From an uncultured Verrucomicrobiae bacterium (GTDB taxonomy: Bacteria; Verrucomicrobiota; Verrucomicrobiia; Limisphaerales; JAFGQR01), in the NCBI GenBank assembly GCA_963788655.1, contig CAWBHS010000026.1:32001-96000 (forward strand): DNA of 64,000 nucleotides. The letters are read 5' to 3'. How positions within the stretch are numbered: position 1 is the stretch's first letter; each line of letters begins with the position of its first letter. The notes under the pieces were generated by a model. That model saw only the letters and a program-made list of their open reading frames with translations, was not told the DNA's origin and did not search any database. The position numbers were made by a program, and so were the translations under genes. Shown here piece after piece: positions 7,296 through 57,838 of this stretch.

Positions 7296-8771
7296 TCAAC
7301 GCACCGCAGCGTCGTGGACGGTCAGTTCGCCGAGTTTATACCGCCGTTGCCCATCACTTTCTGGCAGCGGCAAGGCAATCAACGGGGTGCCATCGCGGCG
7401 GCCCACGGACACATACACGTCGTATGTTCCGGGCTTGGTAGCCGGCGCAAACGTGCCGCGCGGATCCAAGTGGCGAAATCCGACAATCAACGTGGATTTG
7501 AGCTTGCGACTGGAGGCCTGACCTGGCGCTGCGACTTTGAGTTCGCGCACGTTGAAAGATTCATCCACGTGGACGGACACGATTCCGCCCTGGTCGTCTT
7601 TCAGCGTAAAGGTCCAAAAGCCTCCATGGTAGCACGGGGCCACGCCGGCATTCGCCCATTCGGTTTCCACGTCGAAGAGCTGGCTCAACGCCACCTGCTC
7701 CGGCCAACTGATCGCGCGGAGTTGCAACCGATAGCCCAGGCGCCGGTTGATACGGTCGATGGTTTCGCGGTTTTCGTTCAACTCCACCCGCGGCCACCAG
7801 TGAATGGACATGTAACTGGCATGATAATCTTCCACGGACTTCAACAGCAGGTCGCCGCTCCAGGCGCCCCGTTGCTTCGACGAACCGTAATGCTCGTGTT
7901 CAAGAATGACCGGGAGCGTGGGCCAGAATTCCTGGGCCATCTCCGCGTGATACCACGAGTGCGGCGGCGGTTGTACCAGGATGCTGTCATCGCGCATCGT
8001 GACGCCGTGGGCCAGGGCATAGTCCATCGCGGGAAAATGGCGGCCCGGTTTGCTGCTGCCGGCTACATCGTCGCTGATGCACAGTTGCGTCCGCTGGAAA
8101 TGTTTCAGGTGCAGGTCAATGTGCTTTTTAACGACGGCCAGGGTTTGTTCCTCGTTCAACCGGCTGCTGAAGCCCGTGTGGCCTTCGCCCCACATGCCGA
8201 ACGAGCCAATGTCGATGAATGCCACGTTGGGATTGCCATCATACCGGCGGGCCAGCGCGGCCAGGAAATGATCCAGTTTTTCAAGAAACACCGGGTCCAG
8301 ATAGTCCGGATCCCACAGGGCGCCGCCGACTCGCGGCCCTTTGCCGAAGTCGAACTCGATCCCTTTGGCCCCGGCGTCCTGCACCCATTTGGGAGTGGCG
8401 TAGCGCATCCAACTTTCCGAGCAGCTCACCCGAATGGCAATTTGTTTGCCTTGATCGATCCAGCGCTGGGCCGGGGTGTCAAACAGCGACCAATTGAACT
8501 GGCCTTCCTTCGGTTCCAGAAACGACCACGGCACCCGCAGATAAATCGCCGACAGCCCCGGCCAATCTTCGAGCGTGTCCGATGGCGCCAGGCGGGAGCC
8601 GTAGTTCTTGATGATGTTCGAGTAAAAGTGGAAGGTCCACCCCATGCCTGGATTGACCAGCGCCTCGCCGGTGTCCTCGGGATGAACAACGACTCGCTTT
8701 TCAGCGCCGGATCCAGTTGAGCCCAAAACCAACCAAACAGCGGGCAGCAGAAATAACGAAATGGCTTTCAT
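7296..8771 (-). CDS. Secreted glycoside-hydrolase-like protein (TIM barrel + DUF4832-like C-terminal domain)
   Basis: Signal peptide from ATG 8771; NPGMGW, YLRVPWSFLEPKEGQFNW, RYDGNPNVAFIDIGSFGMWGEGH, LGYRL, NAGVAP motifs. Confidence 0.65.
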   Translation of the reverse strand: MKAISLFLLPAVWLVLGSTGSGAEKRVVVHPEDTGEALVNPGMGWTFHFYSNIIKNYGSRLAPSDTLEDWPGLSAIYLRVPWSFLEPKEGQFNWSLFDTPAQRWIDQGKQIAIRVSCSESWMRYATPKWVQDAGAKGIEFDFGKGPRVGGALWDPDYLDPVFLEKLDHFLAALARRYDGNPNVAFIDIGSFGMWGEGHTGFSSRLNEEQTLAVVKKHIDLHLKHFQRTQLCISDDVAGSSKPGRHFPAMDYALAHGVTMRDDSILVQPPPHSWYHAEMAQEFWPTLPVILEHEHYGSSKQRGAWSGDLLLKSVEDYHASYMSIHWWPRVELNENRETIDRINRRLGYRLQLRAISWPEQVALSQLFDVETEWANAGVAPCYHGGFWTFTLKDDQGGIVSVHVDESFNVRELKVAAPGQASSRKLKSTLIVGFRHLDPRGTFAPATKPGTYDVYVSVGRRDGTPLIALPLPESDGQRRYKLGELTVHDAAVR

Positions 8772-9044
8772 GAGGCGGCACGATAGGGCAAGTCGCGGAT
8801 CAGCGACAAATCTTTTCCCCGAGGTCAAGCCTCTCGCCAGAATTCCAAGTGGCGGAGGATTTCAAATTCATCCAAATCGAGCCCTGGACCAAGCCGCTGG
8901 CCGAGCTCGAAGTGCGGCCTCAGGGCGAACATACGCGAAGTCTGGTGCTGGCGCGAGTGCCCAAAGAATTGGAAGGCAAGAAAGTCACCATCAGCGTTGC
9001 CTTTGACTTGGACCCGCTAACCCCTGTCTGCAAACCAGTCGAAG

Positions 9045-9557
<513 letters not shown>

Positions 9558-22390: not shown

Positions 22391-23422
22391 TTACCATTCG
22401 ATCACGGCAGCGGCCCACGTCAAGCCGGCGCCGAAAACTACCAACAACACCAAGTCGCCCCGTTGTATCCGGCCGGATTCCACCGCCTCATCCAGGGCAA
22501 TGGCCACGGAGGCGGCCGAGGTGTTGCCGTATTTGTCGAGATTGACGAATACCTGCTCCGGTTTGGCGCCCAACCGTTCGCCCATCGCATCAATGATCCG
22601 CCGGTTGGCCTGATGGGGAATGACGCATTTGATGTGCGAAATATCGAGGTCACACCGGCGCAAAGCTTCCAAGCCCGCGGTGTACATCGCGGTGACGGCG
22701 CATTTGAACGTTTCCTTGCCATCCATTTGCAAGTAGTGCAACGAACCGGCCACCGTTTCCGCGGTTGCGGGATTGCGGCTGCCGCCAGCGGGCATGTAAA
22801 TGAGTTCGCTTTTCTCGCCGTTGGCACCCATGCAGGCGGTCAACAAGCCATGCGCCGCCGGACGATGCTGGAGAATGGCCGCCCCGGCCCCGTCGCCAAA
22901 GAGGACGCAGGTGTTGCGCTCCTTCCAGTTGACGATGGCGGACAGTTTTTCAGCCCCGATCACCAGCACCGTTTCGTAGGTGCGCGACATGATGAACTGC
23001 TGCCCAATCTCCAAAGCATAGATGAACCCGGAACAAGCCGCTTCGATGTCAAACGCTGCCGCGCGGGTGGCGCCCAGTTTCTGTTGCACCAAACAGGCGG
23101 TGGCGGGAAACGGCATGTCCGGCGTAATGGTGGCCACAATGATCAAATCGATCTGGTCAGCCGTGATGCCGCCTTTCTTCATCGCTTTTTCAGCGGCGCG
23201 GGTGGCGATATCGGAAGTAAATTCATCCTCCGCGGCCAAGCGACGCTCCTTGATGCCAGTGCGCGTCGTGATCCAGTCGTCGGAGGTATGCACCATTTGC
23301 TCCAGTTCCTGGTTGGTTAACACACGGTCAGGCACGTACGAACCGACCGAGAGAATGGAACAGGTACGCCCTTGGAACCCGTGCCGGGCGCGGGGATTGG
23401 TGAATGGTTTGCTCGTGGTCAT
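22391..23422 (-). CDS. fabH: 3-oxoacyl-ACP synthase III
   Basis: WITTRTGIKERR, AACSGF, LFGDGAGA, PHQANRRI, YGNTSAAS, FGAGLTW. Confidence 0.97.
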   Translation of the reverse strand: MTTSKPFTNPRARHGFQGRTCSILSVGSYVPDRVLTNQELEQMVHTSDDWITTRTGIKERRLAAEDEFTSDIATRAAEKAMKKGGITADQIDLIIVATITPDMPFPATACLVQQKLGATRAAAFDIEAACSGFIYALEIGQQFIMSRTYETVLVIGAEKLSAIVNWKERNTCVLFGDGAGAAILQHRPAAHGLLTACMGANGEKSELIYMPAGGSRNPATAETVAGSLHYLQMDGKETFKCAVTAMYTAGLEALRRCDLDISHIKCVIPHQANRRIIDAMGERLGAKPEQVFVNLDKYGNTSAASVAIALDEAVESGRIQRGDLVLLVVFGAGLTWAAAVIEW

Positions 23423-24471
23423 GCGGAAATCGTTACCGCGGGAAGAGGGACAATCTGGCTTTTACTCAGGCGCTCATTGGCCTGGGCAATTTCATGGGTG
23501 ATGTTTTCGGTAAGTTTGTGTTGAATGCTTTCCATGGCCACCCGAATCGCATTGGTGATCGCCTTGGCGCGGGCGGAACCATGGGCTTTGATTACCGTGC
23601 CGTTTAATCCCAGCAATGGCGCACCGCCGTAAGCGTCGGGATCCATCCGGCGCTTGATGCTGCTGAATCCGCCACTGGCCAGGGCCGCCCCAACTTTGCG
23701 CAGCGGATTGCGGTTGAGTTCGCGTTTCAAAAGTCGTCCGACCGCCTTGCCCATGCTTTCGATGGTTTTGAGCACGATGTTGCCCGTGAAGCCATCGGCC
23801 ACCACCACTTCCACGCGGTCAGCAAAGAGGTCGTGGCCTTCCACATAGCCAATAAAATTCAAGTCAACCTGCTGGCACAGCCGGGCGGCTTCACGCGTCA
23901 AGTCGTTGCCCTTGGTGTCTTCCGTCCCGTTGCTCAGCACTCCCACCCGCGGGTGTTTGTGGTGCAGCAGTTCTCGGGAGTAAACACTGCCCATGATCGC
24001 AAATTGCAGTAAGTGGGCGGGCTTGCACTCGGGATTGGCCCCGGCGTCCACGAGCACAAACTCCCGACGATCCGCCGGGATCACGGTGGCGATGGCGGGG
24101 CGGTCCACCTGGTCCAATCGGCGCAACTTGAGGGTCGCGGCGGCCACCAGTCCTCCCGTGTTGCCGCGGGAAATGACGGCCTGGGCTTTGCCGTCCCGCA
24201 CCAATTCGATGGCCCGCACCATCGAGCAATCCTTCTTCTTGCGGACAGCATCCAGGGGTTTGTCCTCCATCGTCAGCACTTCACTGGCGTGAAGAATTCG
24301 CAGGCGGGAATCCTGGCAGCGATGACGGCCCAAAGCCGCTTCAATATTCCGCTCGTCGCCCACCAGGTAAAGCTCGGCAATATCCGGGTACGCGGCCAGA
24401 GCCAAACGGACGCCATCGATAACCACCCCGCAACCGAGGTCGCCCCCCATGACATCCACTGCAATTTGCAT
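23419..24471 (-). CDS. plsX: Phosphate acyltransferase
   Basis: IAVDVMGGD, GNTG, RPAIA, DAGAN, DGFTGNIVLK, YGGAPLLGL, KAHGS; canonical rpmF-plsX-fabH order. Confidence 0.97.
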   Translation of the reverse strand: MQIAVDVMGGDLGCGVVIDGVRLALAAYPDIAELYLVGDERNIEAALGRHRCQDSRLRILHASEVLTMEDKPLDAVRKKKDCSMVRAIELVRDGKAQAVISRGNTGGLVAAATLKLRRLDQVDRPAIATVIPADRREFVLVDAGANPECKPAHLLQFAIMGSVYSRELLHHKHPRVGVLSNGTEDTKGNDLTREAARLCQQVDLNFIGYVEGHDLFADRVEVVVADGFTGNIVLKTIESMGKAVGRLLKRELNRNPLRKVGAALASGGFSSIKRRMDPDAYGGAPLLGLNGTVIKAHGSARAKAITNAIRVAMESIQHKLTENITHEIAQANERLSKSQIVPLPAVTISA

Positions 24472-30464: not shown

Positions 30465-32176
30465 CTACTGCGTCCACTCGAACACCAGCAATGACACGGC
30501 TTGTCGCGGAAGGCTGAAATGCAGCGATTGTCCTGCCGATTTTCCGCGCGCACAGTTTCCGGTGCGTCCAACGTTGCGAGTTGGCCGGCTTGTTCGAGAC
30601 GCTCGTATTGTTCGGGGGTGGGCGCTTGGGGCGAACCCATCTTTTGCCAAAGAGCAAAGGCGTTACTGTGTTCGCCATCGATCCGAAAATGCCGGAGGCG
30701 TAGCGCGTCGGCCGGGTGAGGCAGGCCAGCGACGACCAGTTCAACCTCCGCATCCGGGCCGGGCACATCGTCATCATGATAGTGCCAGGTCATCACGCAT
30801 AGGCGGTTTCTCTCGCGGGAGGCCAATGCCGAAACATCGGGCCGGTTGCGCACCCCTGATTTCAGGATGGTGGCAAGTGGCACCGCGCCGTCGCTGTCGG
30901 CGGCCACTCGTTCGCCGCTCATTTGACTGAACATGCGAAAGACGTTGAGCACGGGTTTGTCAACGCCATGGGTGGCGAGTGCGCGAAAGCCGGCAAAGAA
31001 CGGTTGGTTCTCGAACTCGAACGCCCAGGTCAGCGCGCCGGCGAAGTTGACGCCGTGCCGGTCGGCCAGGTCCTGCTTGCGCGCAAAACTCGCCGCAGTG
31101 TAGCTCGAATACATGGTGCCGTTGCGATAGGCGAGTTGCGGTCCCTGACAGGCAGCGCAACCTTCGGGATCGGATTCGCCAATGACAATGGGCGTATTCC
31201 TCAGTTCCGGATACGACGCAATCATGCCAAAGCCCTCATCGATGGTGCGCAATTGATTGGCAATGCCCATGCGCACGTGGCCGGCAAGGAAGCGCGGGGA
31301 ACCTTTGGCGTGGAAGGATACAAAGTCCAGGGGCGTGCCCCGGTGGCCCGTGGCGTAGTTGGTGCCGCGCAGGCAGTGCTCAAGGAAATCCCGCATGAAC
31401 TGTCCGCCGCTACCCGCCGTGTCGGGACCGCCCACGCGGGCGTTCGGTAGCGCGCGGCGCACGGCGGCTACGGCGTAGTCGTGCAGCCTGCGAAATTCCG
31501 CCGGCGTGCCGCGCCAATAACCGATGTTCGCTTCATTCCAGGTTTCCCAATACCACGAGGCCACTTCGGCGGCACCGTAACGATCGACGCAATGCTTGGC
31601 CCACTGGTAAACCAATTCGGACCAGCGCTGGTAGTCCTTCGGCGGATAAGCCCAACCGGTATAGATCTCGTCGTATTTGGCGCCGGGCCGCCAGTGATGT
31701 TGATACGGCTCCGGCTTGATCGAGAGATCCTTGGGCATAAAACCAATCTCGACGTACGGCCGCACACCCCGTTCCAGGTAGGTGTCGAAAATGCCATCCA
31801 TCAGGACCCAGTTGTAAATCGGTTGCCCGGCTTCGTTTTCGTGGTAAACGCCGGTCGAGCCCCATTTCAGCGCGGGCGTGCCGTCGCCGGAACACAGGAG
31901 GCTATGCGCGCGAAAATAGACTTGCTGCAGCGCCAACTCGCCCAGTTCGGCGATCAGTTTGCGACCGTAAGGCATGGTGGCGTAGTTGGGTTCGTCCGCT
32001 CCAAAGAAACGCCAGATCGGTCGCAACTGCCCGAGCGAGCGGCCGGCGTCCACGCGAATGTGAACGGGAAAACTGGCAGCAGATGACGAGGCGGATTGCT
32101 CGGTGTCTGGTGCTGCCGGAATCTGCGTGCCGCCGAGCAACAGTAAGATCGAAGTTAGCGTAAACTGGGTGCGCAT
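30465..32176 (-). CDS. GH39 beta-xylosidase-like glycoside hydrolase (frameshift near 30530)
   Basis: FFGADEPNY, RPYVEIGFMP, WETWNEAN (acid/base), VGGP, IVIGESDPEGCAAC (nucleophile); true C-terminus LPRQAVSLLVFEWTQ lies in the 30465 frame. Confidence 0.9.
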
Positions 32177-32626: not shown

Positions 32627-35006
32627 TTACTTCGTCACCGCCGCCAGGTATCCCCAAGTATAGGCGTTGGCGGCCATCGGGTGTTGCACGGTGAATTCGC
32701 AAACAATCGGATACCAAAATACGTCCCAGTAGGCTTCCATGACGGGCCATTGCGCGGGCGGAGGATAACAGAATGGCGCGACGACGGTTTTGATAAACAA
32801 GTCGTTTTTCGCCGTCGGATCGGCGGGGCCAAAAACTGTCAGACCTTCCGGAGGCAACTGGCCGGTGTGACGCGAATCCAGGTGCAACGGATGCCGCGGC
32901 CATCGCCGGCCAACGCCGGTGGTGTAGCAGAGGTTCAACGGATTGGCGCCCAAACCCGCCTGGCAGGCGAGTTCAATGGCGCGCAAATACTTTTCGTCCT
33001 TGGTCAGGCGATGCGCTCGAATCACACTGATCACGTCAGAGACGCTCAAGGTCGTGGTCGGCGGCGCCCAATCATTTTTGGTCCAGCCAAAACCGGTTCG
33101 GGTTTGGGTGCGCAATCGTTCCTCGGCTTCGCGGACCGTTGCCTTGCGGCAGAATTCCTGGAGATCTCGGTTTACCGCCGGCCGATGCGTGTTGAGATAG
33201 GCCCAGGCGGCTTCCCGTTGTTCGTGGCTTTGCCAGACATAAAGTTGGGCGCCGGCCTCATTGAGATATGGTGGTCTCCAGGAAGACACGGTGCCAGCGT
33301 TCGTCCCCGGTCAAACGGAACAGTTCGGCCGCGGCATAGTTGCGCTTGTTCCGGACGTCGATATGGTTGTCCATGCGCTCGATCTTCACCCCGCCGGTTT
33401 CGTAGGTGGCCGGTCGCGACTGGCGTTGGGCGTAGTCTTGTTCGGCCCATTCCATGGCGCGCAGGGCGCTGGTTTGATAGATCGCAGCCAGGCCGGGTTT
33501 GCCCAATGCTTTCAACACTCCGGCCGCTTTGGCCGCCACGCCGGCGTAATAGTAACTTGACCAACTGCCCGGCGCATAAGCCATGACGGTGAGCGACTCC
33601 TGCCAACTGGTTTCCCCGAGGTTGGGATGTTCGGCGGACTCGATGCCGCCACGAATCCCGCCCGCCGGGGTTTGCAAACGTCGGTAGCAGTCGAGATTGA
33701 AGAGTGCCTCGTCCACCACGTCGGGCAGAGCGTTGGTGGATTCTGGAATGTTCAAAGACACGCTGGTGGTGAAATCAGGAAACATGGCGCCCAAATCTAG
33801 CAAATAGAGCGAGGCGATCAGATGCTGAATGCGCCGATCCCAGTCACCGGCGTCCATATATCCACCCCAGGCGTTGGTCACCAATTCGTCGGTCTTGCCG
33901 GCGACCAGGTTGCGGAAGTTATTAGGATCGGATCGACTCAGACCATTCCGGGTGTCCATCAGGCGTGTCGAAGAGGCATACACCTTGACGCCGTCTGCCG
34001 GATGAAACGAACGCGGACGGCGGAAGGAAGTAAACGGCGGTCCCAGGTCGATGCCACTGCGTTGGTGATAAAAACCGCGCGCGGAAGTGATGAAGGCCTC
34101 CTTCCAAACCTGGGGGCTGATGCGAAACGGATACGAGCACCCGATGCCCTCCACATAAACCTGATAAAGTCCTTGCTCCCGTACGGCGGAGAAGTCCATT
34201 TCATAAACGTTGGCCAAGGTGAAATTGCGGTGATAAGCATCTTCATCCGTTGCTTTCTTCGGCTTGGTCAAACGGCAAAGCCCGGAATAAACGCGGGTGC
34301 GGTTGCTGGCTTTGATCAGGTGGAATTGAAGGTCGGACGGATAGACAACCCCGCCGCCATCCCCCAGCCAACAGGACAGGAAAGCTCGCTTGACCGGATC
34401 GTTGGGACAAAAGCCGATTTGCGAAACGTGAATCGCTTCGCTGCGCAGTTCCATGGGCTTATAGTCAAACGTCTGGTCGGGGATCGGGAGGCCGTTGAAG
34501 GCAACAGTGTAGCTCGCGTTTTCCTGCAAAGAATGAGGCAGTTTGAGATACAGATGATATTGCACCGGCGCTTTGAACTTCCAATCGTCGGTCCGCGCCA
34601 CCCCGATTGGTTTGTGTTTGCGGCAGACGGCAACCGGATGCTGGTCCGCCTGGTAATTCGGATCGCTGGCCGAGGTGATCCGATAGCTGTTTTGCTCGCC
34701 CAGATTTTCGGTCTCGAGCAAATCGTCGGTGAAGACATCGAAGGGGCAAAGGATATCGCGATCATGGCCGACGAGGACTCCCAGTTCCTTGCCGTTACGA
34801 ACAAGGTAGTGGTTCCGGCCGCCCTCCTGGATGACGTCACCCGTTTGTTTTCGGTAAGGTTGTTGGGTTCCGATACGGACTTCGCCGGCCCGGACGATTA
34901 CCTCCAAAATGTCCGGGGCCACCAAGCCGACATGTTCCACTGTGACGGCCGCGTGCCCCAGCCAAGTGGTTAGGAAGGCCACGGAGAAGGCGATCAGGTT
35001 TTTCAT
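32627..35006 (-). CDS. GH9 cellulase-like protein with N-terminal Ig-like domain (frameshift near 33260)
   Basis: Signal peptide MKNLIAF..; IHVSQIGF, FYHQRSG, GGYMDAGDWDRR, AAAELFRLTGD, LGANPLNLCYTTGVG, EFTV. Confidence 0.88.
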
Positions 35007-35083
35007 GAGCTGAAGTATTTCAGGCTTGGCTGCGGCTGTCGATGGGGATGAGCGGTTACTGCGGAAGGGCATACGGTTGGTCA

Positions 35084-35620
35084 CGCCAGCGTTTGGAGTG
35101 CGACCGGCTTGCCGGCGCTTTTAATATGGTTGCGGCCTTTGACTTGGCTACTTACTCACAATTACCGTAGCGGCCGACGTAAGGAGGCGAATCCGAGATA
35201 ACTGATCGTGTTCTGCTTCCTTACGTCGGCGGCTACCGCAATTCGGCTGTTGAAACCGCGTGTGAAATTTCCAGATTAAAGCTCATGCGCAACGCAACAA
35301 AAGCGGGAGCAAGCTCCCCGCACTCCAAACGCTGGCGCGCTTTTTCGAGGTGCCCATTGCCAGAGACGCGGTTCGTTCAGGAACAAGCGGCCGCTGAGAT
35401 TTCGGGACAGGCGAGACGCCCTGTCCTACGCGTCTTCGCATCCGCACGCCAGTTTATGCGCGGCGAGTCTGTTCCAATCCGCGGCCGGCAAGCTGGCGTA
35501 GCGTGCTGCCGGCGTCTCGCCGGCAGAAACGATTGGAGAGGGGCGTTCTGCAATTCAACATCCGCCAATCTTTGAGAGGCTTGTGCCAATCCGCGGCCGG
35601 CAAGATGCCGGCAGCCCGTT
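35084..35620. repeat. Multi-family REPIN cluster
   Basis: Arms 35084-35122 and 35299-35337 enclose a GTAG-REP doublet at 35167-35236; GACAGGCGAGACGCCCTGTCCTAC at ~35406-35430; GTGCTGCCGGC...GATGCCGGCAGC at ~35500-35615. Confidence 0.8.
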
Positions 35621-35628
35621 GGGGTGGA

Positions 35629-36330
35629 CTATTTGTTGAAGCGGAAATTCACCACGTCGTAATCCTGCATCACGTAAGTCTTCAGTTCCAACCGCTGTTT
35701 GTTGGCGCGTTTGGCCTGCGTTTCACCGCCGGCTTCAATGAAGTCGGCGTAACTGATGATTTCGGCGCGAATGAATCCCTTTTGAATATCCGTGTGAATT
35801 GTGCCCGCTGCCTCCCACGCAGTCGTTCCCTGGCGAATGGACCAAGCGCGGTTTTCTTTGCCGCCGACCGTCAGAAAACAAATATGATCGCTTTCTTGAA
35901 AGGCCCGCACCAGCAACGTTTCCGGCGCGGCGACTTCCTCGGCCGTGGCGACCACGATGGGTTTGTTGGAGCTGAACGAATGAATGGCCAACGGTTCCAT
36001 CTCCTGCGGACTTAGCCGGGCCGCGTACACGGTTTGGTCGGCTTCGAGTTGCGCCTTCAGTTTGAGCAACGCGGTTTGTTCGTCTTCCGTCGGATTACGT
36101 CCCAAGCGAGTTTCAATGAAGTCCAGATCCTTGAAGATCAACTCGAGGAAGCCATCCTGGTTGGTCAGCACACTATCGGCATCCACCAGTTCATCGTCGC
36201 CCACCACGTCCACCTGGGCATAAATTTTCTTCTTCGCCTCGACGAGTTTGTCAGCCGCGTCAAGGCGGGGATCTTTGATATTATGTTTGCCACTCGGAAT
36301 GGCGGACAGGCCGAACGCACAGATTTTCAC
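35629..36330 (-). CDS. DUF933 (YchF C-terminal/TGS) protein with a truncated, degenerate NTPase domain
   Basis: FLTVGGKENRAWSI..GTTAWEAAGTIHTDIQKGFIRAEIISY..YVMQDYDVVNFRFN; only 233 aa, with no GxxxxGKS. Confidence 0.8.
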   Translation of the reverse strand: MKICAFGLSAIPSGKHNIKDPRLDAADKLVEAKKKIYAQVDVVGDDELVDADSVLTNQDGFLELIFKDLDFIETRLGRNPTEDEQTALLKLKAQLEADQTVYAARLSPQEMEPLAIHSFSSNKPIVVATAEEVAAPETLLVRAFQESDHICFLTVGGKENRAWSIRQGTTAWEAAGTIHTDIQKGFIRAEIISYADFIEAGGETQAKRANKQRLELKTYVMQDYDVVNFRFNK

Positions 36331-36389
36331 GCGGCTTCATTAAGTGGCCCGCGCTCCGTGGTCAAGGAAGGAACGGGAAAAAACGCGCT

Positions 36390-36737
36390 TCAACCGAAGG
36401 TACTGCCTCGCCAGCCCCAATTGGAAGCCGGCACATCGGTAAAATTCACATAGACGCGTTCCGGCGGAATGGCCAAAGAAGTCTCCAAAAGCCCGCAGAC
36501 TTTCTGGCAAATCTTCTGGTTCACTTCCCCGTTGAGGCCGCCGATGCTGCGCACTTCCACAAACGCCGCCGGGGCTGTTTGCCCGGACATCCGGATGGCG
36601 GCGGGCTCCAGCACGGCCATTACATATTGCTCCGGCTTGCCGATGCTCTCGACCAGCAACTGGGAAAGCTGGGGCAACAGTTCGGCTTGTCGGTCGTCCG
36701 CGACCGGCACCGAGGTATGGACTTTGATTAGTGGCAT
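36390..36737 (-). CDS. MIF-family (phenylpyruvate) tautomerase
   Basis: Catalytic Pro1 (M-PLIKVHT), IGKPEQYVM, SIGGL, RVYVNFTD..NWGWRGSTF. Confidence 0.9.
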   Translation of the reverse strand: MPLIKVHTSVPVADDRQAELLPQLSQLLVESIGKPEQYVMAVLEPAAIRMSGQTAPAAFVEVRSIGGLNGEVNQKICQKVCGLLETSLAIPPERVYVNFTDVPASNWGWRGSTFG

Positions 36738-36874
36738 AGCACCCGGAGTTTAATCCCCACGGCCAAAAGCACAAATGAATCCCACAGTGTCACAAGGAAG
36801 CCGGTGAAGTGTTAGCGGGTTGGAGGGTTGAAGGTGAATTTTTCAGACGCCAAAACCGTCAACAGCAGAACACT

Positions 36875-53611: not shown

Positions 53612-54241
53612 ATGACAATCACCGGCAGAGAAATTACGCTTGTTATTGCCAGCTACCTGCTGGGCTGTTTTACCACCGGCTATTATTGGGTGCGCTGGCG
53701 GAGTGGGCAGGACATTCGCCAATCGGGCAGCGGGAGCGTGGGCGCGCGCAATGTGGGCCGTACCCTGGGACCTTGGGGATTCGTGATCACCTTGCTCGGC
53801 GACGCGGCCAAAGGCGCGCTGGCGGTGGGGATGGCGCTATACTTCGAAGTCAGCCAGGAAGCGCTGGTGGCCGCCATGGTGGCGGTGGTGGTGGGACACA
53901 ACTGGCCGGCGCAACTGCGCTTCCGCGGCGGCAAAGGGGTAGCCACTTCATTGGGGGCGATTCTGGCTTATGATCCATTCCTCGGAGTGGTTTTGGGGCT
54001 CCTGTTTTTACCGGTGTTTGCCGTGCTGCGCAGTTTCACCTTGAGCGGCATGGTGGCGTTTGCCGTGTCGCCATTGGTGGTCTTCTTCTGCCACTTGGGC
54101 AATGTGGAGGTGGCGGCGGTGTCGTTTGTGGCCATTGCGGTCTTGTTCGCTCATCGGCGTAACATCCGGGAGGAGATCGCCGGTCTGCACGCGGAACCTT
54201 CCGTAAAAGAACGGCGCGGCACGCACCACAAAGGGCGCTAG
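53612..54241 (+). CDS. plsY: Glycerol-3-phosphate acyltransferase PlsY family
   Basis: SYLLG, DIRQSGSGSVGARNVGR, DAAKG, GHNWP..FRGGKGVATSLG, AHRRNI. Confidence 0.9.
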   Translation: MTITGREITLVIASYLLGCFTTGYYWVRWRSGQDIRQSGSGSVGARNVGRTLGPWGFVITLLGDAAKGALAVGMALYFEVSQEALVAAMVAVVVGHNWPAQLRFRGGKGVATSLGAILAYDPFLGVVLGLLFLPVFAVLRSFTLSGMVAFAVSPLVVFFCHLGNVEVAAVSFVAIAVLFAHRRNIREEIAGLHAEPSVKERRGTHHKGR

Positions 54242-55882
54242 ATGAAAGAGACGGAATCACTCCAATTTAAAATCGCGACCGAAGAATGGGAAATCGAAGC
54301 CATTCATCGGCTCAACTACCAGACGTTCGTCGAGGAAATCCCGCAACACGAACGGAATCCCGAGGAACGGCTGGTGGACAAGTTCCACGCCGAAAACACG
54401 TATGCAATTTGTCTGCACGGCGGGCAATTGGTCGGGATGGTGGCCGGGCGGAGCAACCGTCCGTTTTCACTCGACCAAAAGTTGCCGGACCTGGACCAGC
54501 ATCTGCCTCCGGAGCGGCGGGTGATCGAAGTGCGTTTGTTGTCGGTCGAAAAGGCCTATCGCAATGGATTTGTTTTTTCGCGGTTGACGGGTTTGTTGGC
54601 GCAACATTTCCGGTCGCTGGGATTTGATTTGGCGATCATTTCGGGCACGGTGCGCCAGTTGCGCTTGTACAAGCATTTGGGCTTCGTTCCCTTCGGACCG
54701 CTGGTGGGTCCGGCGGAGGCGCAATTCCAGCCGATGTATCTAACGCTGGAAACCTTTGCCCAAGTGGCCAAGTCGCTATCGCCGCCGTCGGCCGACACCG
54801 AGAAAATCATCTCCAATTATCTGCCTGGACCGGTGGACGTCCACGTTGAGGTGCGGAAAGCTTTCGAGCGCGGGCCGGTTTCGCACCGTTCGGACTCGTT
54901 TATGGCGGATTTCCAAAACACCAAGAAGCGGCTGTGCGCGATGACCGGCGCGCGGCACGTGGAAATCCTGGTCGGCTCCGGCAGTCTGGCGAATGACGCG
55001 GTCTGCGCCCAACTGACGCTACTGAAGAAGCCCGGCCTGGTGTTGAGCAACGGTGAGTTTGGCGACCGATTGATCGATCATGCGACGCGGCAGGGGCTCG
55101 AGTTTGAAACGCTCCGAGTCGAATGGGGCGAGCCGTTCGACTATGCGGAAGTGCGCCGGCAGGTTGCCGGTCGCGCGAATCCCGGTTGGATGTGGGCGAC
55201 CCATTGCGAAACGTCCACCGGCATTTTAAACGATCTGGAGTTGCTGAAGCAGATCAGCCGCGAACACGACTGCAAGTTGTGCCTGGATTGTATCAGTGCC
55301 ATTGGCACCGTGCCGTTGGATTTGCACGATATTTACCTGGCTTCATGCGTCAGTGGCAAAGCGCTGGCCTCCTATCCGGGCTTGTCGATGGTGTTCTACA
55401 ATCACGAATTAACTCCCGCCCCCCAGTCACTGCCGCGTTACCTCGACCTGGGATATTATGCCGCGCAGTCCGGCGTGCCGTTCACGCACTCTTCGAATTT
55501 AGTCTATGCCCTGCAAACCGCGTTGACCCGGATGGATTGGCCGGAAAAATACGCGCAGATCGCCGACGTGGCGGTTTGGCTGCGTGGCCGATTGCGGGAA
55601 TTGGGCTTTCAGATTGTGGCGCCGGACGAGCATGCGTCGCCGGCGGTGGTCAGCATTGCGTTGCCGTTGGAAATCAGTTCCAAAGCGGTGGGTTGGCAAT
55701 TGCGCAAGGAGGGTTATCTGCTCAGCTATAACAGCGAGTATTTGCGGAAGCGGAACTGGATCCAGGTCTGCCTGATGGGCGAATGGTCGCGCGACCCCCT
55801 CGAGGCGCTGCCGAACGTGATGGCCGAACTGTGCTCGCAGCGCCGGCTGCGAAAAGATAGCACCCAACTCCAGCCGGCGTAA
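54242..55882 (+). CDS. Fusion of a GNAT N-acyltransferase and a class-V PLP aminotransferase
   Basis: N-terminal ~175 aa GNAT (IHRLNYQTFVEE, EVRLLSVEKAYR, LYKHLGFVPFG); then LPGPV, SHRS..F, SNGEFGDRL, HCETSTG.LN, LDCISAIG, SGKAL..PGL (PLP lysine). Starts immediately after the plsY stop. Confidence 0.9.
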   Translation: MKETESLQFKIATEEWEIEAIHRLNYQTFVEEIPQHERNPEERLVDKFHAENTYAICLHGGQLVGMVAGRSNRPFSLDQKLPDLDQHLPPERRVIEVRLLSVEKAYRNGFVFSRLTGLLAQHFRSLGFDLAIISGTVRQLRLYKHLGFVPFGPLVGPAEAQFQPMYLTLETFAQVAKSLSPPSADTEKIISNYLPGPVDVHVEVRKAFERGPVSHRSDSFMADFQNTKKRLCAMTGARHVEILVGSGSLANDAVCAQLTLLKKPGLVLSNGEFGDRLIDHATRQGLEFETLRVEWGEPFDYAEVRRQVAGRANPGWMWATHCETSTGILNDLELLKQISREHDCKLCLDCISAIGTVPLDLHDIYLASCVSGKALASYPGLSMVFYNHELTPAPQSLPRYLDLGYYAAQSGVPFTHSSNLVYALQTALTRMDWPEKYAQIADVAVWLRGRLRELGFQIVAPDEHASPAVVSIALPLEISSKAVGWQLRKEGYLLSYNSEYLRKRNWIQVCLMGEWSRDPLEALPNVMAELCSQRRLRKDSTQLQPA

Positions 55883-56067
55883 CGTGCTGCCGGCATCTTG
55901 CCGGCAGTTGGCGGCGTTCGTGGCCCCAGACATACGCCCATCAGGATGCTTCGGTCTTCGCACGTCGCAACGTTCCAAACTTGCTGAGGACGCACTCCGC
56001 GGCTTTTTCTGGACGCCTGCCAATGTCGCGCCAGCGTTTGGAGTGCGTGGCGCTTGCTCCCGCTTTC
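55881..56067. repeat. Intergenic palindromic repeats
   Basis: AACGTGCTGCCGGCATCTTGCCGGCAG and GCGCCAGCGTTTGGAGTGCGTGGCGCTTGCTCCCGCTTT, matching families at ~852 and ~35084. Confidence 0.7.
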
Positions 56068-56252
56068 CCAACGCGTGCGTGCATCCGCCTTCTCTGACGG
56101 CCGGAAGCGGACGTCCGCTGGCGCGACTGATCGTCTGCCGGCATTGCGTCATTCTGAATGGTCCTGCAGTGTTGCGCTACCGGTCTTTGACCCTCGGAAC
56201 GTGGTTCGCTCCGGCTTTGACCCCGCCATGTCGGGCTGTTACAAAGGGATTC

Positions 56253-56900
56253 ATGCGCAATACAGCCGCCACGATTCTCGTTTTCCTGAGCGGTTTTGCC
56301 ATTATGGTGCTCGAGATTATCGGGGCGCGGTTTTTGGCCAAAGATTTTGGGGGTTCGTTTTACGTGTGGGTCAGCCAGATTGGGGTGGTGCTGGCAGCCT
56401 TGGCGGCAGGGTATTACGCCGGTGGCGCCTTGGCGGATAGGTTTCAACGGCTGTCTGTTTTGGGGTGGCTGTTGATTCCCGCGGCGGTTATCACGTGGTT
56501 TATCCCGGAGTTTTCCGGACGAATTGTCGAGGCCTTGATCATGCGACATCCCGTGGACCGGGCAATCCCGTTACTGTGGCAAAAGCTCGATCCGGCGATG
56601 GGCAGCGCGGCGGTTTTTGGGCTGCCGTGTTTCGTGTTGGCGATGTTGCCGCCGTTCATGATCCGGTTGGCAGCCCGGCACCTGGAGCGGGTGGGACAAA
56701 CGAGTGGATTGATCTTTGCGGCCAGTACGGTGGGCAGCATCGTCGGGGTGTTTGTTTCCGGTTACGTATTGATTGAGGTGCTGACGGTGACGCACATTTT
56801 TCGAATAACTGGCGCGCTAACGGGGTTATTAGGGGTGAGTTGCCTGGCGGTGAGCCGGTGGTTTGGCGCCGAGCGCACCCAGGCCGAAGTTGAGTCATGA
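56253..56900 (+). CDS. Membrane domain of the 'fused MFS/spermidine synthase' family
   Basis: FLSGFAIMVLEIIGARFLAKDFGGSFYVW..IGVVL.ALAAGYYAGG.LADR, FAASTVGSIVG; ATG 56253. Confidence 0.82.
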   Translation: MRNTAATILVFLSGFAIMVLEIIGARFLAKDFGGSFYVWVSQIGVVLAALAAGYYAGGALADRFQRLSVLGWLLIPAAVITWFIPEFSGRIVEALIMRHPVDRAIPLLWQKLDPAMGSAAVFGLPCFVLAMLPPFMIRLAARHLERVGQTSGLIFAASTVGSIVGVFVSGYVLIEVLTVTHIFRITGALTGLLGVSCLAVSRWFGAERTQAEVES

Positions 56901-57838
56901 GAACACGAATTGTTGGATTTGTTTTAGGTGTCCTGCTGGCTTTCGCGGGTACGGTTACGACGTTGGCGCAGGGCAAAGTGGTCTTCGAGGCCACCTCGCC
57001 GTATCACCATATTCGCGTGCTGGACGATAATTGGGTGCGCACACTGAGTTTCGATGGATCGACCGAGAGCCAGATGTCGCTCACCGATCCGTTGCGTCGG
57101 CACTTCGAATACACCGAGTATTTCCAAATGCCCTGGCTGTGGAATGGCAAGATTTCGCGGGTGCTGATGATTGGTCTGGGCGGCGCCAGCGCGCAACGGG
57201 CTTACGAGCATTACTATCCGCAAGTGACGGTGGAAACGGTGGAACTGGACCCGATGGTGGTCAAGGTGGCCAAGGAATACTTCCACTTCAAGGAAGGCGA
57301 CCGACAAAAGGTTTTTGTCGAGGATGGCCGGGTATTTTTGCGGCGTAATTCACAGCAATACGATGTGATTGTCATTGATGCTTACACCACCGGACGGTAT
57401 GGGTCATCGATTCCGTATCACCTGGCGACGAAGGAGTTTTTTGAGTTGGTAAGCAAGCGATTGGAGACCAATGGCGTCGTGGCCTACAACGTGATTGGTT
57501 CGCTGCGCGGTTTCCAGGCCGACATCCTGGGAGCCATGTATCGGACCATGCGATCAGTGTTTCCGCAAGTGTACCTGTTCCCGGCCCGGTCATCGGACAA
57601 CGTTGTCCTCGTGGGAACCAAATCGGCCGACAAAGTGACGTTGAGCGAACTGCAGCGACGGGCCAACGCGCTCATCAACGCCAAGCGCATCACGTTGTGG
57701 AGTTTTCGTTCGCGGTTGGCGTCGTTTCGTTCCGAGCCGCCACCGAATGCGCGATCGTCTCCCCTGCTGACCGATGATTTTGCGCCGGTGGACGGCTTGC
57801 TCAACAGCCGCAGCTTGGGGCCCTTGAAACTGAAATAG
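56897..57838 (+). CDS. Spermidine-synthase-like SAM-binding protein
   Basis: SPYHHIRV, VLMIGLGGAS, VELDP.VV.VA..YF, EDGR.FL, YDVIVIDAY, PYHLATKEFF, LTDDFAPVD; ATGA overlap with the upstream gene. Confidence 0.85.
   Translation: MRTRIVGFVLGVLLAFAGTVTTLAQGKVVFEATSPYHHIRVLDDNWVRTLSFDGSTESQMSLTDPLRRHFEYTEYFQMPWLWNGKISRVLMIGLGGASAQRAYEHYYPQVTVETVELDPMVVKVAKEYFHFKEGDRQKVFVEDGRVFLRRNSQQYDVIVIDAYTTGRYGSSIPYHLATKEFFELVSKRLETNGVVAYNVIGSLRGFQADILGAMYRTMRSVFPQVYLFPARSSDNVVLVGTKSADKVTLSELQRRANALINAKRITLWSFRSRLASFRSEPPPNARSSPLLTDDFAPVDGLLNSRSLGPLKLK

Follow-up and report, generated by a model that had tools for sequence, protein, structure and literature searches.

A plsY-like gene joined to a gene for a GNAT–aminotransferase fusion protein: a candidate operon for serinol-backbone phospholipids in Verrucomicrobiota

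Introduction

Which genes would a bacterium need to build a phospholipid on serinol instead of glycerol? The question is raised by two abutting genes in an uncultured Verrucomicrobiae bacterium (GenBank assembly GCA_963788655.1). They lie on contig CAWBHS010000026.1, within a stretch of 64,000 nucleotides (contig positions 32,001 to 96,000, forward strand) that was analyzed as a whole and is referred to in the following as the window; all coordinates are window positions. The first gene (53612–54241, + strand) encodes a 209-residue protein of the PlsY acyltransferase family. The second (54242–55882, + strand) encodes a 546-residue protein, referred to as the fusion protein, in which a GNAT N-acyltransferase domain precedes a class-V aminotransferase domain dependent on pyridoxal 5′-phosphate (PLP).

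To our knowledge, PlsY has so far been known only as an acyltransferase for glycerol 3-phosphate (G3P). A sequence-only reading of the window had suggested that the two genes make a serinol-based analogue of phosphatidic acid, and had pointed to Limisphaera ngatamarikiensis as an organism in which the suggestion could be examined. Serinophospholipids of that species have been reported, judging by the title of the report (Vyssotski et al. 2025, J Nat Prod 88:373, cited in PMC13388977). The literature that we searched assigned no genes to serinophospholipids and made no link between serinol and PlsY, the two coinciding only in the word "serinolysis"; that search did not cover Vyssotski 2025 or Cohen 2017, which could hold such proposals.

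Here, we propose that the two genes form one operon for a serinol-phospholipid backbone, in which dihydroxyacetone phosphate (DHAP) would be converted to serinol phosphate, N-acylated, and then O-acylated by the PlsY-like enzyme. We give this reading a probability of roughly 0.55. The broader claim, that the PlsY-like and fusion proteins act in one lipid pathway, we consider very likely.

Results

The gene pair

The TAG stop codon of the plsY-like gene (54239–54241) directly touches the ATG of the fusion gene at 54242, forming the junction TAGATG (54239–54244, + strand), as the sequence-only reading had described. Such a junction suggests that translation of the two genes is coupled.

The first protein belongs to the acyl-phosphate-dependent, seven-helix PlsY family. 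It matched the PF02660 (G3P_acyltransf) profile with an E-value of 7.6e-42 and a score of 143.6 bits (cut-off 24.1). Its AlphaFold model, with a mean predicted local distance difference test (pLDDT) score of 93.8, was superimposed by Foldseek on the Aquifex aeolicus PlsY structures 5xj5 and 5xj6 with TM-scores of 0.82–0.86 and a root-mean-square deviation of 1.8–1.9 Å, at 32% sequence identity.

The two-domain nature of the second protein, which had been read from the sequence as a GNAT/class-V aminotransferase fusion with an intact SGKAL lysine, was borne out by matches to PF13444, PF21926 and PF00266, and by the invariance of the lysine, K373, in all 33 aligned relatives. The GNAT domain, of the N-acyl amino acid synthase (FeeM, OlsB-like) type, spans residues ≈7–180 (54260–54781), and the aminotransferase domain, which has fold type I, spans residues ≈190–541 (54809–55864). 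In the structural model, the GNAT part forms a separate domain, and a low-confidence linker at residues 178–187 precedes the aminotransferase.

Acyl-phosphate, the acyl donor required by any PlsY, is supplied by PlsX, an acyl-ACP (acyl carrier protein):phosphate transacylase. As had also been noted, plsX is present elsewhere in the window (23422–24471, − strand; PF02504, E = 2e-107). It is not linked to the pair, but lies 30 kb away in the usual arrangement with fabH (22394–23422), which it adjoins.

Conservation of the pair across genomes

When one genome for each GTDB species was scanned, 108 relatives of the fusion protein were found, from which the best 80 loci were kept and searched for an upstream PlsY by tblastn with the window protein. 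Four loci (L005, L039, L063 and L070) had less than 200 nt of upstream sequence and were uninformative. In 68 of the remaining 76, a PlsY gene was found immediately 5′ of the fusion gene and on the same strand. This frequency is far beyond what chance would produce, and fortuitous abutment of two open reading frames (ORFs) was rejected as an explanation. The estimated gap between the genes was negative, that is, the genes overlapped, in 52 of the 68 pairs (39 by 4 nt and 8 by 11 nt); it was 0–12 nt in ten pairs, 13–100 nt in five, and 259 nt in one frameshifted locus.

The surrounding genes vary. Among 132 flanking ORFs from the 68 loci, the most frequent neighbors were an oppositely oriented rhodanese gene, in 11 loci, and dnaX, in 6. 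No recurrent lipid gene or third gene, such as CdsA, Pss or a phosphatase, was found beside the pair in the window or among these ORFs. Since the flanking genes are not conserved, the PlsY–fusion pair itself is the unit that has been retained.

By record label, 49 of the 68 pairs are from Verrucomicrobiota, 6 from Chloroflexota, 3 from Actinomycetota, 2 each from Acidobacteriota and Bacillota, and 1 from Kiritimatiellota. Close relatives of the fusion protein number in the thousands in Verrucomicrobiota from soil, freshwater and hot springs. Cultured carriers of the pair include Limisphaera spp., Pseudalkalibacillus caeni and Pseudoneobacillus rhizosphaerae. The two Bacillota pairs (L050 and L054) come from isolates, and the Kiritimatiellota (L045) and Chloroflexota pairs from metagenome-assembled genomes (MAGs); the Kiritimatiellota and Dehalococcoidia pair sequences are distinct. 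Nine loci (L003, L022, L024, L032, L037, L040, L060, L075 and L076) are labeled as Bifidobacterium, Limnocylindrales, Acidoferrum, Angelobacter or Acidiferrales, and both of their proteins fall inside verrucomicrobial clades, with 54–74% identity to the window proteins. The Bifidobacterium, Limnocylindrales, Acidoferrum and Angelobacter labels on such pairs probably reflect mislabeled MAGs.

Eight loci (L049, L052, L053, L056, L059, L062, L077 and L079) encode the fusion protein with no PlsY, despite sufficient room upstream. They fit a shorter route that would end at free N-acyl serinol. In two of them, both from Acidobacteriota (L052, 4967–8575, and L053, 3344–8390), the fusion gene lies between genes for an EamA-family transporter and a calcineurin-like metallophosphoesterase, plausibly a set for making, dephosphorylating and exporting free N-acyl serinol.

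At the Pseudalkalibacillus caeni locus (L050), the gene directly 3′ of the fusion gene (7634–9487, + strand) encodes a 618-residue Sulfatase-family (PF00884) protein, which by its size looks like a member of the LtaS or phospho-head-group transferase kind.

The pair in Limisphaera

A search with the fusion protein of Limisphaera sp. 4302-co, which followed up the suggestion of the sequence-only reading, yielded an ortholog in L. ngatamarikiensis (P0125 = WP_165106257.1, 550 residues) with 92% identity to it. Three Limisphaera loci (L014, L016 and L020), from congeners of L. ngatamarikiensis, were fetched, and in each of them a plsY gene lay directly 5′ of the fusion gene, so that the genus reported to make serinophospholipids also carries the adjacent pair. 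The Limisphaera species paper and one supplement contained no polar-lipid or plsY data. At the 4302-co locus (L014), the pair adjoins a gene (7831–8688, − strand) whose product has a prokaryotic STING domain (PF20300, E = 2e-9).

Natural fusions of PlsY with the GNAT–aminotransferase protein

The window PlsY was used in an exhaustive HMMER search, which gave 14,235 representative sequences at E ≤ 0.001. Among these was a 768-residue protein, P0273, labeled as from a Nibricoccus sp. (Opitutales) MAG, that has all three domains on a single chain: PF02660 at residues 14–184, FeeM at 225–357 and Aminotran_5 from residue 423. Over its C-terminal 530 residues, it shares 50% identity with the window fusion protein. 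A search for longer PlsY-containing proteins then gave 66 matches, the best five of which (P0391–P0395) combine PlsY with a GNAT domain. Four of the five are full PlsY–GNAT–aminotransferase fusions, and P0395 is a shorter PlsY–GNAT form; the sixth match, P0396, is a short form with PlsY and the aminotransferase domain only. P0392, P0393 and P0394 each hold PF02660, PF21926 and PF00266 on one polypeptide, and P0391/P0461 represents a more distant, fifth three-part case, with a Bipolaricaulia MAG protein among the members of the P0391 cluster.

P0273, P0392, P0393 and P0394 are mutually 59–73% identical over 710–753 aligned residues, including the junction between the PlsY and GNAT parts. The 90% identity cluster of P0392 has five members, on several contigs and from three sources. 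An artifact of gene calling was rejected on the strength of these two observations. That the fused architecture has diverged to 59–73% identity shows that it is inherited and not a sequencing slip. Such natural fusions are "Rosetta stone" evidence, read from protein sequences, that PlsY and the GNAT–aminotransferase protein act together.

The aminotransferase and GNAT domains

PF00266 (Aminotran_5) was matched by residues 213–391 of the fusion protein. The PLP lysine, K373 (codon at 55358–55360, in the SGKAL motif), aligns with the lysine of the SGK/SQK motif in 7e7g and 1vjo, and D349, the aspartate that contacts N1 of PLP, is likewise invariant in the 33 aligned relatives. The closest families and folds are the 2-aminoethylphosphonate (AEP) transaminases and the alanine:glyoxylate aminotransferases (AGT): profile searches matched 1vjo, 7e7g and 1m32 at E-values of 1e-36 to 1e-38, and Foldseek gave TMt values of 0.79–0.86, the best match being the AEP transaminase 7e7g (TMt 0.85). 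The domain nonetheless scored far below the cut-offs for PhnW and AepZ (TIGR03301, 150 versus 360.8 bits; TIGR02326, 85.8 versus 400.8; NF010006, 89.9 versus 296), and it did not reach that of the SerC equivalog (NF003764, 24.3 versus 253 bits), with which it has only a His-Arg motif in common.

Two features of the active site bear on the substrate. The first is Gln508 (codon at 55763–55765), which in all four printed alignments (1vjo, 7e7g, 1m32 and 2dr1) sits on the arginine of the (F/W)R(I/V)G motif, the position at which class-V enzymes hold the carboxylate or phosphonate of the substrate, and which is glutamine in 33 of 33 relatives. An arginine that binds the α-carboxylate of the substrate is, in the words of the available text of PMC6797613, "found in all aminotransferases". 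The second is the invariant pair His215-Arg216 (33 of 33; codons at 54884–54889, "SHR"), a proposed phosphate binder, which aligns with residues ≈41–42 of the phosphoserine aminotransferase (PSAT) model (NF003764; residues 213–429 match model positions 39–249). In PSAT, His41 and Arg42 are described as binding the distal acid or phosphate group of the substrate.

The PSAT substrate, 3-phosphohydroxypyruvate, has a carboxylate where DHAP has a CH2OH group and is otherwise the same, and a glutamine at the carboxylate-arginine site fits DHAP for that reason. An enzyme designed for DHAP would be expected to pair a phosphate site like that of PSAT with a neutral glutamine at the carboxylate position, and the presence of both features suggests that DHAP is the keto substrate.

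An alternative is that the aminotransferase acts on phosphonoacetaldehyde, phosphohydroxypyruvate or a sugar phosphate, in which case the pair would make a different N-acyl amine lipid. The AEP transaminases are the best match by both family and fold (TIGR03301 at 150 bits; 7e7g), and serinol phosphate was itself assigned as the product by inference. This agreement is offset by the wide shortfall from the PhnW cut-offs (150 versus 360.8 and 85.8 versus 400.8 bits) and by the replacement of the acid-binding arginine of PhnW and AGT by glutamine in every one of the 33 relatives. No PEP (phosphoenolpyruvate)-mutase-type neighbor was found among the 45 ORFs of the window or the 132 flanking ORFs. 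Furthermore, N-acyl-AEP and N-acyl-phosphoserine would offer PlsY no free hydroxyl, and the genus Limisphaera, which bears the pair, is a reported maker of serinol phospholipids. We consider a different amine highly improbable. A PhnW phosphonate pathway, specifically, was rejected on the scores, Gln508 and the lack of phosphonate genes in the window and flanks.

In the GNAT domain, residues 20–153 matched PF13444 at 30.0 bits (cut-off 22.4) and, marginally, PF21926 (FeeM) at 28.2 bits (cut-off 27); all 33 fusion relatives matched PF21926, with a best E-value of 4.3e-13. A sequence search of the PDB with residues 1–181 for a solved homolog returned only chance matches (E ≥ 0.3). From its family, the domain is proposed to be the N-acyltransferase for serinol phosphate.

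The linked PlsY proteins are atypical

All 11 linked PlsY proteins that were scored missed the 137.2-bit cut-off of the PlsY equivalog TIGR00023 (window protein, 129.8 bits; ten others, 105–132.5). Their functional residues were compared with those of the Aquifex enzyme. In the available text of PMC5700162, the phosphate of G3P is clamped by Ser35, Arg45, Lys104 and Asn180; Ser142 and His177 are ligands of the glycerol 2-hydroxyl; His92 and Thr41 bind the acyl-phosphate; Asn37 assists the oxyanion; and the R45A mutant keeps 1% of the activity. The window PlsY retains the clamp (S40, R50, K108 and N184), together with H96 and H181, which correspond to His92 and His177. It differs at three positions, with Ser42 in place of Asn37, Arg46 in place of Thr41 (alignment to 5xj5; the motif-1 codons for Ser42 and Arg46 lie within 53735–53749, + strand) and glycine in place of Ser142.

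These substitutions recur in the group. Position 41 is arginine in 62 of 69 fusion-linked PlsYs, versus 3.0% of the 7,288 homologs surveyed in PMC5700162; position 37 is serine in 49 of 69, versus 6.0% of the same homologs; and position 142 is glycine in 52 of 69, versus 5.2%. Most of the linked sequences are interrelated, and the counts include that kinship. After three truncated sequences (L037, L047 and L051) were dropped, only one of 66 complete linked PlsYs, L071, was canonical at all of S35, N37, T41, R45, H92, K104, H177 and N180. By the published frequencies, ≈63% would be expected to be canonical at four of these eight positions if the positions varied independently (PMC5700162).

Eight of the 69 linked PlsYs, among them those of all three Limisphaera loci, lack the clamp arginine itself, Arg45. 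In the Limisphaera clade (L001, L002, L014–L017 and L020), position 45 is threonine, serine or alanine, and position 41 is arginine; this arginine, four residues earlier, may be a shifted form of Arg45. The Opitutales-type three-part fusions (P0273, P0392, P0393 and P0394) keep Asn37 and Thr41, and have aspartate or lysine at position 180. Taken together, these residues point to an altered active-site constraint in the linked PlsYs rather than to a defined new specificity.

These data also bear on a different view, in which the plsY-like gene encodes an ordinary G3P acyltransferase and the fusion protein separately makes an N-acyl serinol (or phosphate) lipid or signal, the two genes being linked for co-expression only. 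Most linked PlsYs do conserve the phosphate clamp and His177, the window and locus flanks hold no other plsY that could serve as the housekeeping gene, the fusion protein occurs with no PlsY at eight loci, and N-acyl serinol is a known end product in published descriptions. Co-regulation, however, leaves unexplained why PlsY, GNAT and aminotransferase are inherited as single chains, and why the same pairing is found in Bacillota, Kiritimatiellota and Chloroflexota. An ordinary enzyme would also not be expected to deviate from the canonical functional residues in 65 of 66 cases, or to lack Arg45 in the Limisphaera clade, when the same change leaves the Aquifex enzyme with 1% of its activity (PMC5700162). 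On balance, we regard a purely housekeeping role as unlikely.

Some further analyses gave little information. In the ESM Atlas, the nearest group to the P. caeni PlsY is a 725-member, mostly Bacillota PlsY cluster, which says nothing on copy number; genomes of the Bacillus cereus group may carry several plsY copies, and a literature search for PlsY paralogs was uninformative. Prediction of a complex between the fusion protein and PlsY gave a score of 0.00 and a mark of 0.32, which is evidence neither way.

Proposed pathway

In the pathway that we propose, the aminotransferase domain would first transfer an amino group from a donor to DHAP, giving serinol 3-phosphate, with the phosphate held by His215-Arg216 and the CH2OH group faced by Gln508. 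The GNAT domain, being of the FeeM/OlsB type, would then attach a long acyl chain, probably taken from acyl-ACP, to the nitrogen of the new amine. In the third step, suggested by the linkage and by the natural fusions, the PlsY-like enzyme would O-acylate the free hydroxymethyl group with acyl-phosphate from PlsX. The product would be a phosphatidic-acid analogue, N,O-diacylserinol phosphate, to which head groups could be added by ordinary CdsA, Pss, Psd and methyltransferase enzymes.

The serinolipid pathway put forward in the sequence-only reading is thus supported at the level of sequence comparison by five observations: the conserved pair, the presence of the fusion protein in L. ngatamarikiensis, the three-part fusions, the atypical PlsY, and an aminotransferase that falls outside PhnW, AGT and PSAT and has no carboxylate arginine. 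In a stronger version, the pair would supply every committed step towards a third type of phospholipid backbone, besides glycerol and the sphingoid bases, and a re-tooled PlsY would make a "serino-phosphatidic acid"; to this possibility we assign somewhat less than an even chance.

The last two steps might also take place in the opposite order. PlsY would then O-acylate serinol phosphate, or DHAP that is subsequently transaminated, and the GNAT domain would N-acylate the lyso-form in the manner of PlsC. No analogue is closer to G3P than serinol phosphate, which has an amino group for the 2-hydroxyl and would fit the PlsY pocket with few changes; the altered residues include a ligand of that hydroxyl, Ser142, which is glycine in 52 of 69. 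The aspartate found at position 180 in Opitutales-type fusions, L050 and others could conceivably pair with a 2-ammonium group. Against this order, the aminotransferase is nearly always fused to GNAT and not to PlsY, as if the amine were handed to GNAT first, and the fusion protein occurs in eight loci that have no PlsY at all. In addition, the Gemella N-acyl serinol synthase, as far as it is described, yields N-acyl serinol in Escherichia coli on its own, so this GNAT type accepts an amine that has not been O-acylated. O-acylation before N-acylation therefore appears distinctly improbable, and we retain the order in which N-acylation comes first.

Several observations weigh against the proposed operon. 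Gln508 leaves the carboxylate of the amino-acid donor with no evident holder. The eight loci with no PlsY, five of them from Acidobacteriota, imply that the fusion protein can work alone, and no dedicated head-group genes are linked to the pair in the window or among the flanking ORFs. The residue signature of the linked PlsYs is not uniform: the Opitutales-type fusions alter N180 instead of N37 and T41, four linked PlsYs have threonine at position 41, and L071 is wholly canonical. With its whole G3P clamp and His181 in place, the window PlsY could still be an ordinary G3P acyltransferase, and no second plsY was found in the window or in the ≈6 kb flanks of the fetched loci.

Finally, the linked PlsYs did not form one clade in a tree of 68 linked PlsYs and 140 unlabeled representatives (the frameshifted L051 and representatives outside 170–260 residues were excluded); at least seven changes were forced, on a count in which the unlabeled representatives have no known context. 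The tree was poorly resolved, with 95 of 204 inner branches open. The representatives come with no genomic context, so the tree can neither delimit a subfamily nor demonstrate co-transfer.

Other features of the window

Directly 3′ of the pair, two ORFs (55884–56900 and 56897–57838, + strand) jointly match NF037959, "fused MFS/spermidine synthase": residues 139–325 of the first correspond to model positions 3–183, and residues 12–301 of the second to positions 195–480. They are a split form of the usually fused protein, and translation of the first ORF probably begins well downstream of 55884. Among the fetched loci, MFS/spermidine synthase genes were found 3′ of the pair only at L048.

A GH9 cellulase (32630–35084, − strand) is divided between two overlapping ORFs, one with CelD_N and the start of GH9 (33261–35084) and one with the end of GH9 (32630–33289), which may be due to a frameshift or sequencing error. 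Similarly, ychF may be split (35632–36774, − strand): an ORF with the YchF C-terminal domain (35632–36330) is preceded by a separate 144-residue ORF (36343–36774) that had no Pfam match at 1e-5.

Discussion

The family of each part of this system was already known, as were N-acyl serinol synthases. What is new is that such a synthase is coupled to an atypical PlsY and occurs in three-part fusions, and that it is linked to a producer of serinophospholipids. New, too, is the arginine-to-glutamine logic of the transaminase.

If the stronger version of the proposal is true, serinol phospholipids, rather than being a curiosity of one thermophile, would be common in the membranes of a phylum that is among the most abundant in soil. 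The atypical PlsYs would then be the first of their family to use an acceptor not based on glycerol. The pair would predict which uncultured lineages make serinol lipids, and could serve as a marker in work on lipid biomarkers. It would also give a predicted structural logic for a DHAP transaminase, in which the carboxylate arginine is changed to glutamine and a PSAT-type His-Arg pair holds the phosphate. With a concrete two-gene candidate, the question of the serinophospholipid genes becomes testable.

The Gemella N-acyl serinol synthase reportedly has an aminotransferase domain. The nas gene of Gemella haemolysans alone gives N-acyl serinol in E. coli, according to the passages available from PMC13012048, PMC11271093 and PMC10407893. 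This protein, hm-NAS (Cohen et al. 2017, Nature 549:48), is, like the window fusion protein, an N-acyl synthase of the PF13444/FeeM kind. By its description, which is the basis of the comparison, its end product is a free N-acyl serinol signal lipid and no linked PlsY is mentioned, whereas the window fusion protein has a PlsY-like O-acyltransferase as its coupled partner, and in some lineages the two are fused.

Among solved structures, A. aeolicus PlsY (PDB 5xj5–5xj9) has the fold, the phosphate clamp, His92 and His177 in common with the window PlsY. The latter differs in having arginine, serine and glycine at Thr41, Asn37 and Ser142, and in its sub-cut-off TIGR00023 score. It is also coupled to an amine-forming, N-acylating enzyme, while the Aquifex protein, of the PlsX/PlsY/PlsC pathway, stands alone; the acceptor would be (N-acyl)serinol phosphate in the one case and is G3P in the other.

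For the aminotransferase, PhnW (1m32, 7e7g and 9kk8) provides the closest solved fold and NCBIfam model. Its carbonyl substrate carries a phosphate or phosphonate two to three atoms from the carbonyl, as in the proposed reaction. Unlike PhnW, the window enzyme has Gln508 in place of the FRIG arginine and a His-Arg pair of the PSAT kind, and no phosphonate genes lie nearby.

Transaminases that convert DHAP to serinol phosphate are known, namely RtxA's N-terminal domain from Bradyrhizobium elkanii and Cj1437 from Campylobacter jejuni, as described in the available parts of PMC3222319 and PMC11800397. They carry out the reaction proposed here for the first step, and the likeness drawn here is one of reaction; no DHAP transaminase was named among the PDB matches to the window aminotransferase. 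RtxA and Cj1437 are reported to serve rhizobitoxine synthesis and capsule amidation, respectively, whereas the window enzyme would serve lipids. The closest counterpart in terms of product is L. ngatamarikiensis, whose serinophospholipids, as named in the title of their report, belong to the class of compounds that the window pair is proposed to make.

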